Source: Pseudogymnoascus verrucosus
Taxonomy: Eukaryota
NCBI GenBank assembly: GCA_001662655.1
Contig: KV460265.1
DNA: 54,234 bases
Strand: one strand, 5' to 3'
Shown in pieces: positions 4,881 to 31,710 of this stretch. The position numbers and the translations under genes are program-made. Within the stretch, counting starts at the first letter, position 1; every line of letters begins with the position of its first letter. The notes below the pieces were generated by a model. It was not told the origin of the DNA. It worked only from the letters and a program-made list of their open reading frames with translations, and did not search any database.

Positions 4881-5228
4881 CCAATCCTCCCAATTCCCCA
4901 TCTTCTCCTTCTTGATCTTCGAGGTCGCCGCCTCTCATCTTCTTCTCCCAGATCATCCTCCCAGCACTGACAGTTCCCATCGATCTACGCCGAGATCACA
5001 GTACTCTTTCTCTTCCCCCTCTTCCCCCAGCGCTGTCCTTGCGCTCTCTCTTTTCAGCTTCCTTGAGCTCACCCCCCAGGGGACGTGGCCTCTTCGCCGA
5101 TGACCTCCCCGACGAGCTTCCCATTCCCAAACTTCCTTTCCAAAACCCCTCCTTTCTCCAAACCCCGCTAACACATCAATAGCAGTATATCACCAACCAC
5201 GACCACCACCACGACCACCGCCGCTACA

Positions 5229-5567
5229 ATGCCCCTCCACGGTGTGGGGCTCGTCCTCACCGTCTGTGGTGCGGCCTGCGTGTTCGGGTTCCTCGGGGGC
5301 CTGGCCCAGCGCTGCTACATGGAGGCCCGTTCCCGCTCCCGCGCCCAGCACGACGCCCGCGAAGCCGCCCGCCGCGACGCCAACCGTGGCTGGCCGTCCG
5401 CTCCTGCGGATATCGAGCTGGGCCCCAGGCGCCCCATCGTGTGGCTTGATGGGCAGTTGGCGGCCCAGACGGGGGTGGGGAGGGGTCGGGTCTTCAACCC
5501 GGATGCCGAGGCCATTGCCGCGAATGGGAGGGAGGAGCGGGGGGGGTTGGGGTGGACGACGGTGTAG
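5229..5567 (+). CDS. Small hypothetical single-pass membrane protein (112 aa)
   Basis: ATG in good context (ctacaATGc), N-terminal hydrophobic segment GVGLVLTVCGAACVFGFLGGLA, GC3-rich codons. No recognised domain. Confidence 0.5.
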   Translation: MPLHGVGLVLTVCGAACVFGFLGGLAQRCYMEARSRSRAQHDAREAARRDANRGWPSAPADIELGPRRPIVWLDGQLAAQTGVGRGRVFNPDAEAIAANGREERGGLGWTTV

Positions 5568-6250
5568 AGGGGGGTGGGTGGTCCGGCAGCGTGAGCGGCT
5601 GGGGCCGGGGGGTGAGGGGGGTTGTGATCGGGGGTGAAGACCGACCAGCCGATGGAGGGGGGAGGGAGTGGGGGAGGTTGCGGGAGATGAGGGTGGCCGT
5701 GGCGGGGGAGGGTGTGTGTGGGTGTTGTCGGCCTCCGGCGTGAGGAGGATGGTGGTGCCGATGGGAGGCGATGGAGGAGACCAGATCGCGCCTGCCTGGT
5801 TCGAGCGACGACGAGCCCTCGATACTCCCTTGGGGCTGGTGCTGGAGTGATGACCGCCCAGCTGCCTTGGATCGAGACGGCGTACGGAGCGACTCTTCTT
5901 GTCGCGGTGCGTTTGAGTGGCTTTGTCTTCGGCCACCGATGCCAAGCCAGATCGTGGTGACCGAGGAGTTGGGAAGGGATGAAGCCCGCTCCTGCCAGTC
6001 GGCCAGTTCGGGGCTCTCAGAAGCCAGCTGGACCGGTGGTTTTCGGAAGTCGCCACGTGATGGTGCGGTCGAGGTGAGGCGGGTGGTGATGGGAGGTTGG
6101 CGACGGCGACGATGGAGGGAGGGGGGGCGACGGTGAACATAGATTCACCTCGCTGGCGATAAGGGGCGCGGGTCTGACGCCTGTCGGCGAATCAGGCCTG
6201 GCGGATTCACTGATGACGACGCCAGCGGAAGCGTCCACGGAATCCCATCG

Positions 6251-6745
6251 AATAGGGGGGCCACCGGGAATGAGTTTGGCCCCCCTATTTCGCTTCCGAT
6301 TCACTTCACTCTGGGGCACACTGGCAACAGAGGGGGCTTCTACGCGCTTTTACTTCACCATCGCATTCACCATCGACACAAGGGCTTTTGGGAACCACCA
6401 GGAACGAGATTGGTTTTCTCTTGTTTGCTTTTCTGTCTTCTCTTCTCCTCCCCTCTCCAATCTTCGGCACGTCAACAAAGTGGAAGTTCACCAGGAGCGA
6501 GTTTGTTCTTCCACTTCTCCTCACACAGTATCACAACGCAGTTACAAGGTCACCGGGAACGAGTTTGGCCTTGCAACAATATTCACAAAGTAGAAGTCCA
6601 CCAGGAACGAGTTTGGACTTCTATCTTTCATCAATCATCATCACAAAGGGGTAAAAGGTCACCGGGAATGAGTTTGGCCATCCTTCTTTCAACATTCACA
6701 ACAAATCTGTAAGAGATCACCAGGAACGAGTCTGATTCTCTACTT
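6251..6745 (+). repeat. Array of 7 stem-loops with conserved CA-CCRGGAAYGAGTT-TG loop and variable complementary stems (candidate structured RNA leader or ncRNA)
   Basis: Loops at 6264, 6398, 6491, 6553, 6601, 6662 and 6720. Each is flanked by its own inverted repeat, e.g. aataggggggcca/tggcccccctatt, aagtggaag/cttccactt, tagaagtcca/tggacttcta. Confidence 0.85.
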
Positions 6746-6910
6746 TTCTTCATCACAAACTGTGCAAAGAACTCCGTCAGGTCACATAGCACGCTCACCA
6801 GATTGGGCTTGCTTATTCCATTTCCTCAATATCAAAACAAAGCGTGAAAAGATCACCAAGAAGCAATTTCATCATCCAAACCGCAAAACAAAGGGGCACA
6901 CACAGCGACA

Positions 6911-9703
6911 ATGTCCGACTCACCTGGATCAGACTCATCATCTGGATCAGACACATCGTCTGAGGAATCCCCTGGAAATTATGAACTGCGCATGAATGAA
7001 TTAGGGATGGCTGAAGTGCTGTCTTTTTCATATGCACGATCTCCATCTCCACCTGCATTGGAAGATCCCAAGACTCCTGAAGCCACTTCTTCGACATCAT
7101 CACCCTCAGCAGTCGGGACCCCAGTTTCCACGTCGTCGGGAACTTTATCTGCAGAAGCTGGGAGCCCAACATCGACGTCGTCCAGAACTTTGTCTCTACA
7201 AGCTGGCACCCCAACATCAACGTCGTCGAAAACTTTGTCTCTACAAGCTGGCACCCCAACATCAACGTCGGAGGAGGATGACCCGTATCCAGTAGCTCAG
7301 AGCCCAACATCGACGTTCTCGGAATCCACGTCTGCTGCTGCACCCAAGACCCCAACCAAGTCCCCAGCAGCAAAGAACCCACCATGCACGTCCCTGTCGG
7401 CGCCGTATCCAGAGTCGTGGACTGAAAAACTGTGGTCTCCACCATCGTCTCCAGAGCTGCCCTCTCAATTGTCTCTGCATCTACCGTCTCCGGTGCGGAT
7501 CTCTCCGGAGCCATTCTCTCCAGCGCCGTGGTGGCCCGTATCGTCCTCTCCAACACCCGAGCCTGGAGCACGCACGACTCCAGCATCCCCACCGCCACCA
7601 CCGCCTGAGCGCGTCGTCATCGCCATCGCGGGCCCAACCTCTAGTGGCAAGACAACTCTCTCCAACCTTCTTCTCCATGTCTTTGGCAACGGCAGTGCTA
7701 CTCCGGGAAGCGGCTTTACCTCGGTCGCCCTCCATCAAGACGACTACTTTGTTCCTAGTAATCTCCCTACCGGACCTCAAGTTCAATGGGCTGAGTGCTA
7801 CCTTGAAGAATGGATGGGCGAGTGCCTTGCCAGTCGCGCCTGCATGTTCAAAGGTTTCACCGTGGAGGAAGCCGACAGGATCACACCCGTGCACGAGGAG
7901 ATACTCATCAGGGAGTATCGGGATGTCCATGCCCGTAGATGGAATGCACCTCATTTCGATGCAGAAGTTCTCAGCCTCCAGCTTCGCAGTGGCAAGAACC
8001 GTGACACGCGCCTTGTGACTGACTTTTTTGCTCTCGCCATCGCTATTGCGCGTGCCAAGGCGTCTATGCTCGACTCCGACATGGAAATTGCTGAGAGGGG
8101 TATGGTCACGGATTATAGCTTCCTTCTGGAGAAACCAAGCATTGACGGTCCCGAGATCGAAGACAACGAATATGGACCTCGCGATCCAAGCCCTTTCATC
8201 AAGGAGGAGGAGTCTATCAAGGGGGATGGATCAGTCAATGGAGTGGAACCTATCGAGATCTATGAATCAATCGAGAAAGATGAACATATTGAGGTATATG
8301 AATCAATCGAGAAAGACGAATCTATCGAGAAATATGAATCTACCAAGAACGGTGATCCTATCAAGGAAGAGGAGCCTATCCTAGAAGACGAGATCCTCGG
8401 GCATGATGAAGTATGGAACATCACAAAGTACAGGATCCACAAGCCTAGATGGCCCCCATACAAAGTTGACCATGGGATATATGGCCCCTACCTCCAAGAC
8501 CCCACCATGGTCGTCCCCAAGAAGGGTAAATCCGGCTACATCAAGAACCCGATCAAGCCCAACTCCCTCATTCCACACCACTGCTTCGCCGTCGAGCCAA
8601 ACTCCCTCCAATACCCAGAGCTCCCAGACGGCACCCGCAAGCTCCTCCCCGTCATCGTCAATCTCCGCCTCCAAGTGCAACGCTGGATCGAGGCTATGAC
8701 GACTCTGAACGAACTCGCTGGCTTCCCCGGGCTGAACTTCATAGATGGCAAATTCCGCGGCATCGTCTTCGTCGAGGGCTTCACGATCCTCCAGCCCGCC
8801 GAGGTCGACCCCGCCGCCCATCAACCCAACTACGACCTCTCGCTCTTCCTGTCTGCAACCCGTGAGGGAACGCGCAAGCGCAGATTTGCGCGCAAAGAGT
8901 ACAATAAACCGCTCATGAAGAGATACATGACATGGCGCGAGAAATCCTACTTCGATGGCGTTGCGTGGCCTGCGTTCGTTGAGGAGCACCAGTGGATCTT
9001 TAACATGACTCCCCAGCAGGCGAAAGAGGGACTTATGCCCGATGCCAAGTATGAGAATGTGTCTGACCTGGCGAAGGAGCGAGGCTTGGAGGTGCGACCG
9101 GGTGAGATGGGGATTAAAGAGACGCTGGAGTGGGCGATGCGTAAGATTATGAATGAGTTTGGGTTCAAGGAGAAGACTGCTAGGGAGAAGTGGGTGGAGG
9201 AGAAAAATGCTAGGGAGTACTTGGCGAAGGAGCAGAATGATTGGAATATGTGGGTGGATGAGGAGAATGCTTTCCATATGTGGGTGAATAAGGAGAATGT
9301 TAGGGAGATGTCGGCGGATGAGGATAATGATGGCGACGTCGTGGAGCAAGAGCAACCTGGAGAGTGGATTCAGGAGAACTTGATGGATGAGGACGACATT
9401 GACTTCATGTTTGAGATAGAGAAGCGTAATCTAGATATAACGGATGCGATTCATCGGGAGTGCCGTGATGATGGTCAGGTCCGTGATGATGCTGACCCTT
9501 ATTGGGGTAGACATGGTGCTGTTGAGGATGAGGATTTTGATTACGCTGCTGATCCCTGGTGGGGAATGCAGGATGACAATCTTGTGGAGGAGGTCTATTA
9601 TTCGGGAGACTTCAAAAATCTGGACTGGGAGGGGGATGATGGTATGCAGGCTTTCGGGACGTCGGATTCGGAATTATCGCAAGGAGGGTTTTGTAAGATA
9701 TGA
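6911..9703 (+). CDS. Enlarged P-loop kinase of the nicotinamide riboside kinase / uridine kinase family (930 aa)
   Basis: Intronless ORF. Walker A VIAIAGPTSSGKTT, LHQDDYF, later IVFVEGFTIL, YDLSLFL...RKRRFARKEY and YFDGVAWPAF match the fungal Nrk1-type motif order. It has a Ser/Thr/Pro-rich N-terminus, a large internal insertion and an acidic tail. Confidence 0.8.
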   Translation: MSDSPGSDSSSGSDTSSEESPGNYELRMNELGMAEVLSFSYARSPSPPALEDPKTPEATSSTSSPSAVGTPVSTSSGTLSAEAGSPTSTSSRTLSLQAGTPTSTSSKTLSLQAGTPTSTSEEDDPYPVAQSPTSTFSESTSAAAPKTPTKSPAAKNPPCTSLSAPYPESWTEKLWSPPSSPELPSQLSLHLPSPVRISPEPFSPAPWWPVSSSPTPEPGARTTPASPPPPPPERVVIAIAGPTSSGKTTLSNLLLHVFGNGSATPGSGFTSVALHQDDYFVPSNLPTGPQVQWAECYLEEWMGECLASRACMFKGFTVEEADRITPVHEEILIREYRDVHARRWNAPHFDAEVLSLQLRSGKNRDTRLVTDFFALAIAIARAKASMLDSDMEIAERGMVTDYSFLLEKPSIDGPEIEDNEYGPRDPSPFIKEEESIKGDGSVNGVEPIEIYESIEKDEHIEVYESIEKDESIEKYESTKNGDPIKEEEPILEDEILGHDEVWNITKYRIHKPRWPPYKVDHGIYGPYLQDPTMVVPKKGKSGYIKNPIKPNSLIPHHCFAVEPNSLQYPELPDGTRKLLPVIVNLRLQVQRWIEAMTTLNELAGFPGLNFIDGKFRGIVFVEGFTILQPAEVDPAAHQPNYDLSLFLSATREGTRKRRFARKEYNKPLMKRYMTWREKSYFDGVAWPAFVEEHQWIFNMTPQQAKEGLMPDAKYENVSDLAKERGLEVRPGEMGIKETLEWAMRKIMNEFGFKEKTAREKWVEEKNAREYLAKEQNDWNMWVDEENAFHMWVNKENVREMSADEDNDGDVVEQEQPGEWIQENLMDEDDIDFMFEIEKRNLDITDAIHRECRDDGQVRDDADPYWGRHGAVEDEDFDYAADPWWGMQDDNLVEEVYYSGDFKNLDWEGDDGMQAFGTSDSELSQGGFCKI
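7110..7330 (+). repeat. Intragenic 45-bp tandem repeat encoding AG(T/S)PTSTSS(R/K)TLSLQ
   Basis: About 3.5 copies of gctggcaccccaacatcaacgtcgtcgaaaactttgtctctacaa, plus a further partial copy at about 7300. Confidence 0.85.
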
Positions 9704-30315: not shown

Positions 30316-31710
30316 ATGCGTGGCACCGTAATTGTCGAGGTAGTAGCTGCTGCGACCTTCGTTTATGTCGTAGCGGCGCAAGAGACGACGTCGCTTTTCC
30401 TGCCCTACTTCGCGCCTGGACATCCATTGCTGGCATCTATCGTTGACGCTGTGAGTGTTATTCCTACTATTTTATAGTCTCATGACATGACTAACATCCA
30501 AGAAGGACCACACCGCAACAACGTACTCTGTCGCCTGCTCCATCCACGAGCCTACTGTCCTCAATGGGTGCCGCGTTCCTATACCTTTCTACCTTACCTC
30601 GGGGCCGACATTCATGCATGCGACAATGTCGTTGCCGTCTACGTATTTACCCTCCTTCGTTCCTTCCCTGCTTCACTCCTTCCCCGCCTTTGCTCTTTCG
30701 CTCTTCGCCCCTTTCCCCATTCCCTCCTCCGCTCTTTTCCCCCTTTTGCTCTAATCCCCCCTCACACCTTCCACCATTCCCTCCTTCGCTCTTGCCCTTT
30801 TTTGCGCTTTCCCTCCCTCGCTACTTCCCTCGTTGCCCCCTTCTCTCATTCCCTCTTTCGCTCTTTCCCTTCTTTACACTTTCCTTCCCTCTTCCTTCGT
30901 TCCTTCCCCACCTTCCTTCTCAACTATCCAACCAACTAACCCCCCCCCCACAGATCCGAAATACGCACCCACACCACAACCCGCCTCTCCATCCCCCTCG
31001 CAAGCGAATACCTCTACCTCTTCCCCGCCTACACCGAAGACGCCTACTGCCACCTCCTCCCCACCTCCGCCTCCTGTCTCGTGACCGCCACCGGTGGCGC
31101 GCTGACAGTGCCTACATTCACGAATAGACGGACGCTGGTGGGGGATGGGTTTTGGGGGGGGTGGAGGGAGGCGGTCGTTACGGATGTTATGCCGAGGAGT
31201 TATGCGTTGGGGGGTGGGGGTGGGAGAGAAGAAGGGAAAGGGAAAGGAAAAAAGGAGAAGGGGGAGGGGGAGGAGAGAGTATGGAAGAAGTCGGTGGTTA
31301 GTGAGATTCCGCAGACGCTGGATGTGGTGGGAGAGAAGGCGGAGGGGGTGAAGACGCCGGCGAGGACGGGGGGAGGTGTGGTACCGAAGGAGACGGGTGG
31401 TGGGGTGGTCGCAGGGGGAGGAGGGATGATGACAACGACCGCTATGCCGGGCTCAGAAATTGCTTCTGGCTCTGCGACTCCTGATGCGGATGTTGAAGTA
31501 GGAGGTGAAGCTGCAATTGGGAGTGGAGAAGCCCATATAGACACCCTCACGACTACGAAGACCGAGTCTCGAGAGATAACAGAAACAAAGATCATAACTG
31601 AGACAGCGGTGGTAACAGAAACTCTCATTGTTACTGAGCTCGCCGTCGTCACTGACACAGGTGTGCGGCGGAGTGATGATCAGAGGAGTGTCAGAAAGGA
31701 GAATTTATGA
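30316..31710 (+). CDS. Putative secreted Thr/Ser/Gly-rich cell-surface protein; introns 30451-30502/30505 and 30643-30953
   Basis: Signal-peptide-like MRGTVIVEVVAAATFVYVVAAQ, then TTSLFLP...LLASIVDA-DHTATTYSVAC. Splice phases are consistent across all three exons. Thr-rich tail. Confidence 0.75.

Follow-up and report, generated by a model that had tools for sequence, protein, structure and literature searches.

An array of small hairpins with one 13-nt loop on differing stems upstream of an NRK-like kinase gene in Pseudogymnoascus

To our knowledge, few systems are known in fungi in which a hairpin loop is recognized by its sequence. In bacteria, CsrB/CsrC and RsmX/Y/Z are sponge RNAs that titrate CsrA/RsmA, and we know of CsrA only from bacteria; in fission yeast, meiRNA is a decoy RNA that carries Mmi1 sites. 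The Smaug/Vts1 element (SRE) is defined, in the excerpt of PMC4053848 used here, by CNGG at the 5' end of a loop of 4-8 nt, with the base before CNGG paired to any one of the five that follow it. Within a 54,234-nt window, the whole stretch of DNA analysed, we find an array of 7-8 small hairpins, 560-660 nt in length, that present one 13-nt loop on differing stems upstream of a kinase-like gene.

A pattern search of the window with the 13-mer CACCRGGARYGAG returned seven exact matches, all on the + strand and all within 470 nt (positions 6262, 6396, 6489, 6551, 6599, 6660 and 6718), and no match outside the array on either strand. Among 100 dinucleotide-preserving shuffles the mean was 0.35 matches and the maximum 2, with 0/100 reaching 7. 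All seven loop positions proposed by an earlier sequence-only reading of this DNA were exact, with 0 mismatches, on the + strand. The hairpins share the closing pairs C-A/T-G and the 13-nt loop CCRGGARYGAGWY, and their arms are unlike between copies. An ungapped 39-column alignment of the seven units has 12 invariant columns, all of them within columns 12-28, hereafter the core. The units are spaced by 134, 93, 62, 48, 61 and 58 nt. Every unit is oriented like the gene at 6911, and the last copies end 36-95 nt before its ATG.

TRF with a minimum score of 30 reported no repeat in 6251-6880. With this null result and the uneven spacings there is no constant period, and a regular tandem repeat or minisatellite was rejected; since TRF finds no regular array, the identity of the core is not due to recent homogenising duplication. 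Dispersed direct-repeat families are present in the array, and units 3+4 and 5+6 resemble a duplicated block of ~110 nt (families D1 and D5). A MITE or foldback element was also rejected, the arms being unlike between copies and the central core alone common to them.

We built a covariance model (R1) from the units and ran it on the window with filters off; it scored the seven units at 43-54 bits and found one further copy in the window, at 6785-6816. Unit 1 (6251..6289, + strand, as are all features of the array) has a perfect 13-bp stem and the loop CCGGGAATGAGTT with an ATG at 6270 (−26 kcal/mol, z −3.56, 52.4 bits). Unit 2 (6390..6418) has a weak 8-bp stem with two G.U pairs and the loop CCAGGAACGAGAT (42.9 bits), and its designated stem differs from the MFE fold. 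CT-rich tracts are often found at fungal start sites, and one such pyrimidine-rich tract (6421..6466), a possible core-promoter or start-site tract by its composition, lies between units 2 and 3. Unit 3 (6478..6516) consists of nine outer pairs, two U.U mismatches and the two closing pairs around the loop CCAGGAGCGAGTT (−12.2 kcal/mol, 49.1 bits). Unit 4 (6541..6577) has a 12-position stem with one G.U and one A.C and the loop CCGGGAACGAGTT, in which an inner GGAA tetraloop is predicted to be able to form (−13.5 kcal/mol, z −2.36, 48.8 bits). Unit 5 (6591..6623) has a perfect 10-bp stem and the loop CCAGGAACGAGTT (−14.3 kcal/mol, z −2.98, 54.1 bits). Unit 6 (6649..6687) retains an inner 5-bp stem only, GGTCA/TGGCC, and has the same loop as unit 1, CCGGGAATGAGTT, with an ATG at 6668 (44.3 bits). 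Unit 7 (6707..6745) has a weak stem of four pairs followed by G.U/A.C and the loop CCAGGAACGAGTC (43.3 bits).

Downstream of these lies a degenerate unit 8 (6785..6816) with a 9/10-bp stem and a loop shortened to CCAGAT (16 bits and E 0.03 with R1; −12.1 kcal/mol, z −2.82), and then a decayed, stemless last copy (6832..6875; family D3, 77% to 6696-6726) that gave no match with R1. Three degenerate copies had been suggested at about 6321, 6797 and 6856: the second corresponds to unit 8, the third to the decayed copy without a stem, and the first was dropped, having no match with the model. The linkers of 6531..6758 are C/A-rich and G-poor on the + strand and hold five + strand copies of TCACAA, out of 27 in the whole window, in agreement with the recurrence of this motif described before. 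Across the seven main units and unit 8 the designated stems fall within the 4-13 bp range of the array. The loop ATGs of units 1 and 6, as had been pointed out, open uORFs that end at 6593 and 6712.

Stem pairing was compared with a slid-register control in which the 3' partner was moved by 1-3 columns. Standard pairs are formed by 81.3% of the 91 stem cells of the seven units and by 31.9-51.2% of cells in six slid registers. Eleven of the 13 stem pairs differ on both sides among the seven copies, and 0/500 column shuffles reach the observed covariation score. The view that the stems differ in sequence yet are self-complementary and co-vary is borne out by this pairing level and by the doubly changed pairs. 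An inverted-repeat search independently recovered the perfect arms of units 1 (13/13) and 5 (10/10) as I1 and I2; the remaining stems are as first quoted, and in the alignment units 3 and 5 do differ by a compensatory G-C/A-T pair.

Folding stability is uneven among the units. In isolation, units 1, 4 and 5 clearly outperform shuffled sequences (z −3.6, −2.4 and −3.0), unit 3 is marginal (z −1.2), and units 2, 6 and 7 are no better than shuffles (z −0.75, +0.93 and +0.39). When the whole leader (6230-6910) was folded as + strand RNA, the mean pair probabilities of units 1, 3, 4 and 5 were 0.92, 0.59, 0.93 and 0.97, and those of units 2, 6 and 7 were at most 0.10 (0.01, 0.02 and 0.10). Because of these probabilities in context, we describe the array as comprising four solid hairpins and three or four weak ones.

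The same fold on the − strand gave 0.93, 0.04, 0.47, 0.18, 0.98, 0.00 and 0.01 for units 1-7, and the whole-leader predictions mildly favour the + strand. Single-unit folds are about equally good on the − strand. It had been argued that several imperfect pairs are G-U only on the + strand and favour a + strand RNA; this does not hold, as the 91 stem cells contain nine G.U on the + strand versus six A.C, which would be G.U on the − strand. The strand evidence from G.U pairs is weak.

One non-coding frame, 6143-6712 (P0012), was translated and compared with protein databases. The search recovered spurious gene-caller ORFs that run across the orthologous arrays of relatives: P0014 (106 aa, ENA), P0015 (55 aa, JGI) and P0016 (101 aa, Logan). 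P0019 (240 aa) belongs to the same 90% cluster as P0016 and is probably on the same contig as the 54%-identical kinase homologue P0009 (longest contig 11,569 nt in both). Two weak matches of repeat proteins to the translated array (P0017 and P0018, E ~1e-5, eight stretches each) are probably chance and were rejected. Aligned to the window by tblastn, the relatives' proteins switch reading frame along their length, which is what non-coding DNA containing indels would produce.

Codon changes were counted between species in P0014, P0015 and P0016, that is, in protein translations rather than in DNA. Changes were found in 1/35 core codons, 13/46 stem codons and 40/141 other codons (53/187 for all non-core codons). 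Fisher's test of the core against the rest gives P = 0.0005, a value that is optimistic because P0014 and P0015 share five changes and the lineages are not independent. The sole core change shifts the deviant GAGAT of unit 2 to a consensus-compatible codon. As read from these translations, the loop core is conserved between species far better than the stems or flanks. The stems change at least as fast as the neutral-looking flank, and within 6612-6732 of the window, in the comparison with P0014, changes affect 7/16 stem codons versus 0/13 linker codons (P = 0.008).

Several of the stem changes preserve pairing. At the unit 1 pair 6255/6285, G-C has become A-T in P0016/P0019 via Arg>Gln and Pro>Leu codons, a change that the translations make certain to be compensatory; the core of unit 1 is unaltered in the orthologue. 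In P0014, the unit 6 pair 6659/6677 has gone from U.G to U-A, with pairing kept, as is certain from the translation, and g6715>a in unit 7 would convert G.U to A-U, provided that its unread partner has stayed the same. The unit 6 orthologue in P0014 has five changed arm codons around an unchanged core. Other pairs are broken: C.C at 6261/6279 and A.R at 6655/6681 are certain in P0014, and A.G at 6261/6279 is certain in P0019 (read by hand). The P0014 ORF starts in the 5' flank of unit 2, crosses one core and continues directly with unit 5 (its 3' arm and linker), which implies one unit there versus units 2-5 here and ~203 nt fewer. Copy number thus varies between species. The CT tract at 6421..6466 is absent from the P0014 lineage.

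Among 24 sequencing runs listed, none was an RNA run covering the region. Four DNA runs (X3, X4, X5 and X9) are ~99% identical to the window and cover the whole array, X9 partly. Within 6251-6745 these four strains differ at five sites, one in a loop, two in stems and two in linkers (6423 and 6435), too few for a test of constraint. Both stem sites belong to the unit 4 pair 6545/6573, in which each partner is changed in a different strain: C6545>T yields U.G and G6573>A yields C.A on the + strand. The loop difference, A6610>G in unit 5, occurs in X3 and X4 (2/4 strains) at an otherwise invariant position and counts against strict loop invariance. In unit 8, close relatives have an additional GCAGAA after 6792 and C6812>T.

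The gene downstream of the array is a 930-aa ORF (6911..9703, + strand) with a Ser/Thr/Pro-rich N-terminus followed by an insertion-split P-loop NRK/uridine-kinase-like domain. The protein has 11 database homologues, with identities from 99% down to 49%, and all named ones are from Pseudogymnoascus, which places the host in this genus (Leotiomycetes) and makes the gene a fast-evolving, genus-restricted one. Named orthologues are V499_02791, VE02_04246, V496_09856, V502_00197, VE03_02019, V494_04056 and V495_03137. Its only match in Pfam is AAA_18 (E 0.028), and a PDB sequence search with the 930-aa protein gave nothing useful. In the ESM Atlas, residues 228-752 group with fungal nicotinamide-riboside/uridine kinase clusters (feature score 0.93); taken on the cluster side, for the NRK rows, the structural TM is 0.76-0.81. 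Given these values and the insertion-split kinase fold, the label NRK-like, which the sequence-only reading had attached to the downstream kinase, is fair.

On the upstream side, a 112-aa ORF (5229..5567, + strand) has a coding-type GC pattern (GC1/2/3 0.73/0.58/0.87) and no Pfam family, and the long ORFs over 5190-6140 are without the coding-type pattern. By its composition the 112-aa ORF is a probable upstream neighbour gene, which would make 5568-6910 intergenic, between two + strand genes, and the array lies in the 1.3-kb spacer downstream of its stop codon. The sequence is C/A-rich from ~6290 to the ATG at 6911, and the linkers within 6290-6910 are G-poor on the + strand (63 G of 439). 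There is a single ATG in 6290-6910 (shuffle mean 4.1, P = 0.037) versus 11 in the 645 nt of 5568-6212. The composition of 6290-6910 hints at a likeness to a sense-strand leader.

Searches for known families gave no assignment of the array. Rfam had no match at the gathering score in the whole window, and in 5800-7300 with E up to 10 there were only six noise matches, all with E of at least 2.2, and no riboswitch. Ligand sensing, which had been offered as one possible role, is unsupported, since no riboswitch or other Rfam family matches even at this permissive E and there is little room for a binding pocket in a hairpin of 39 nt whose loop is 13 nt. A tRNA search returned nothing. In the literature, the papers listed for the loop strings were primer-type chance matches, and none of those listed dealt with this motif or with a hairpin array in Pseudogymnoascus or filamentous fungi. 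A metagenome scan for CACCRGGAAYGAGTTTG over 19/64 parts found at least 120 loci (estimated 410); the loci listed have a single match each, with a flanking stem of 2-6 bp and no array, and are chance matches. The window contains no complementary target for the loop; the only extra match, with three mismatches, shares the strand of the units.

Several specific readings were rejected. Ssd1-type sites in 5' UTRs have the motif CNYUCNYU, and 6251-6910 contains one match only (6682) and no cluster. Fungal microRNA-like precursors have a long, Dicer-suited stem of ~20 bp or more, compared with stems of 4-13 bp here. For splice-site, snoRNA, A-to-I editing, Mmi1 and STAT/heat-shock core readings, compared by eye with the known motifs, required bases are missing or variable. 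We know of no fungal DNA site that matches the loop core.

The region is supported as a selected, structured array rather than noise, and it is probably a docking site for some factor. A 17-nt core shared by the seven paralogous copies and kept between species, set between mostly complementary arms of unconstrained sequence, is the hallmark of a hairpin with a sequence-read loop. Tentatively, and at somewhat below even confidence, we favour the reading that the 5' leader of the NRK-like gene, transcribed on the + strand, carries a multivalent array of loop-specific docking sites for a protein. Its RNA nature, the + strand as the active strand, its place in the 6911 transcript, a protein as the partner and an effect on translation or decay are all inferred. 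The earlier proposal of an RNA leader or a sponge is a plausible candidate.

In the docking-array reading, the array would be a cis-acting RNA element in the long 5' leader of the NRK-like mRNA, on the + strand transcript. Each hairpin, whether one of the four strong or of the three or four weak ones, would show the loop CCRGGAAYGAGUU closed by C-A/U-G, and together they would offer a series of docking sites to a single RNA-binding protein specific for the loop sequence. We propose that the stems drift and compensate because only their pairing matters, and that the loops stay fixed because they are read by sequence. Sites in a row would allow avid, cooperative binding, and this binding, the hairpin of −26 kcal/mol close to the 5' end and the two loop AUGs would together set scanning and translation or the lifetime of the mRNA, with the 5' hairpin and the loop AUGs adding to repression. 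A transcription start in the CT tract after unit 2 would leave units 1 and 2 outside the mRNA, which counts against the leader reading. So do the poor folding of units 2, 6 and 7, the certain stem disruptions in relatives, the loop change A6610>G, the weak strand tests, the unstable copy number and the small number of relatives compared. A more far-reaching version seems rather unlikely to us: that the array is one half of a new eukaryotic RNA-protein pair, in which a fungal protein reads CCRGGAAYGAGUU and either gates translation of the NRK-like gene or is sponged, as a counterpart of the CsrB type with units gained and lost between close species.

The placement of the array where a promoter would be expected, between two + strand genes and with a CT-rich tract typical of fungal start regions after unit 2, would suit an element acting at the DNA level. 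The 17-bp core, perhaps with CACAAA-type linkers, would then be a repeated transcription-factor site in the NRK-like promoter, and the inverted flanks a by-product, for example of template switching. The closing pairs C-A/T-G are invariant in sequence, beyond mere pairing, and conservation of the 6612-6732 linkers matches that of the cores (0/13 changed), as such an element would have it. According to the excerpt of PMC8794818 used here, template switching can make or repair stems without selection. It would also fit stems that outpace linkers (7/16 vs 0/13). A transcription-factor site needs no complementary flanks, yet 81% of the cells pair and 11/13 pairs are doubly changed; in addition, a non-palindromic core of 17 nt is long for a single DNA-binding domain, no fungal site is known to match it, and the single orientation of all copies is not required for enhancer-type sites. 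We consider transcription-factor sites unlikely. A little less likely again is an independent non-coding RNA from either strand, such as an upstream or antisense lncRNA, that acts in trans as a decoy or sponge for a loop-binding protein. Identical loops on variable stems are, by analogy, the layout of known decoy RNAs (CsrB/RsmZ, meiRNA), the hairpins fold about equally on both strands, and the array, 560-660 nt in length, is 1.3 kb away from the stop codon of the upstream gene. Its composition and ATG depletion resemble those of a sense-strand leader instead, the array reaches to ~36 nt from the ATG at 6911 without a recognisable end signal, and it is a single locus within the 54 kb examined.

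The loops themselves contain C-R-G-G in 7/7 cases, with the variable base at the N of CNGG, and could thus be a cluster of Smaug/Vts1 elements, at which the fungal SAM-domain protein Vts1 binds CNGG loops and recruits deadenylation or decay factors. In the excerpt of PMC4053848, the protein leaves the 3' part of the loop uncontacted and longer loops are expected to bind. A 9-nt loop with CNGG at its 5' end would result from a C1-G11 pair, which is predicted with a probability of 0.83 for unit 4 and of 0.14-0.30 for four of the others. Set against the geometry in that excerpt (PMC4053848), CNGG in the plain hairpin begins at the second loop base and the loop is 13 nt vs the 4-8 nt defined, the C1-G9 pair that would give a CNGGN3 loop has a probability of at most 0.01 in 7/7 units, and C1-G11 ranges over 0.00-0.83. 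The conserved AAYGAGUU and the closing pairs would be left unexplained. Known SREs are mainly in coding regions and 3' UTRs, not in 5' leaders, and we hold this assignment to be improbable. The least probable of the readings, and a very unlikely one in our judgement, is a neutral, decaying minisatellite-like repeat without function, whose hairpins would be kept by mutational template switching alone. Copy number does vary between species, the 3'-most copies are decaying, certain stems are disrupted in relatives, a loop substitution segregates among close strains, and strain differences strike loops, stems and linkers alike (1, 2 and 2 sites). Decay cannot keep the core, in which 1/35 codons changed vs 53/187 elsewhere, and all 12 invariant alignment columns fall inside it. 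Template switching could explain the paired, fast-changing stems but not the fixed core.

With its 7-8 sites and invariant 13-nt loop, the array would offer a direct means of isolating the factor that binds it, and would allow the study of multivalent RNA elements that expand and contract between species. The pattern of fixed loops, stems that change faster than linkers and partial compensation is relevant to the question of whether hairpins are maintained by selection or by template switching. If untranscribed, the array would be an odd promoter repeat of local interest. The host genus includes the agent of bat white-nose disease, and nothing in this analysis ties the element to virulence.

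Compared with described systems, the array resembles the CsrB/CsrC and RsmX/Y/Z RNAs in being a row of hairpins with a GGA loop on unrelated stems (GGA is present in 7/7 array loops), in its multivalent layout and in its variable copy number. Those RNAs are bacterial, free-standing sRNAs with terminators, whereas the array is eukaryotic and adjoins an ORF, and its loop is longer and different in sequence. The comparison with CsrB made in the sequence-only reading is an analogy that extends to layout alone. Hairpins produced by template switching, as presented in the excerpt of PMC8794818, are alike in that both arms change together, as in the paired, fast-changing stems here; they differ in that the process is a mutational mechanism without function, and the conserved core is left unexplained by it. 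By analogy the nearest fungal system is the SRE, likewise a loop read by its sequence on a stem whose own sequence is free, often present several times per mRNA and with a fungal family of binders, Vts1, and CNGG occurs in 7/7 array loops. The array loop is 13 nt with CNGG offset by one base, as opposed to 4-8 nt in the SRE, and the array conserves nine further positions and two closing pairs and lies upstream of the ORF. Because the loop geometry fails and the nine conserved positions are unexplained, we do not class the array as an SRE. The general kind, multicopy hairpins with a sequence-read loop, is familiar; the motif itself is undescribed, and to date one locus is known, in a single genus.

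The array of hairpins with a common 13-nt loop (6251–6875, + strand) is preceded by a spacer at 5568–6250 in which G is very abundant and the GC content is 0.62–0.74. When translated, this spacer is recognisable in the Pseudogymnoascus relative that carries P0019, a 240-aa predicted protein spanning the orthologous array DNA, with 55% translated identity and indels. P0009, a homologue of the NRK/uridine-kinase-like 930-aa ORF (6911–9703, + strand), appears to lie on the same contig as P0019 and is only 54% identical to that ORF. Because the translated spacer reaches 55% where P0009 reaches 54%, the intergenic DNA seems, on this sequence comparison, to be conserved at least as well as the fast-evolving 930-aa ORF. 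By eye, ATTCAC-type words are repeated at 6142, 6205, 6298 and 6364.

Further upstream of the array is a 112-codon ORF (5229–5567, + strand). Its GC3 of 0.87 is strongly of the coding type, and the N-terminal part of its translation includes a hydrophobic stretch. A Pfam search with this ORF matched no family; it is probably the gene for a small membrane protein. The Ser/Thr/Pro-rich N-terminal part of the 930-aa ORF contains two in-frame tandem repeats, one of 18 nt in 2.4 copies (6920–6962) and one of 45 nt in 3.1 copies (7130–7270). The shorter repeat is polymorphic: among the DNA runs of close strains, X3 and X4 lack 18 nt at 6941.

Within the array, each base of the unit-4 pair 6545/6573 is altered in a different close strain, C>T at 6545 in X9 and G>A at 6573 in X5. 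Combined, the two changes would yield a compensated U-A pair; none of the four close-strain runs compared carries both.

At 30650–30915 (+ strand) lies a CCCTCCTT-type tract, rich in pyrimidines, in which periods of 8, 56 and 72 nt are nested; a cluster of matches to the Ssd1-type motif CNYTCNYT is due to this tract.

The translated array frame (6143–6712) weakly matched two repeat proteins, P0017 (500 aa, with about nine copies of a 54-residue unit) and P0018 (1348 aa), in 8 stretches each at E of about 1e-5. Both matches are probably coincidental, repeat against repeat; P0017 could instead represent a further tandem array, in another organism, whose core is similar.
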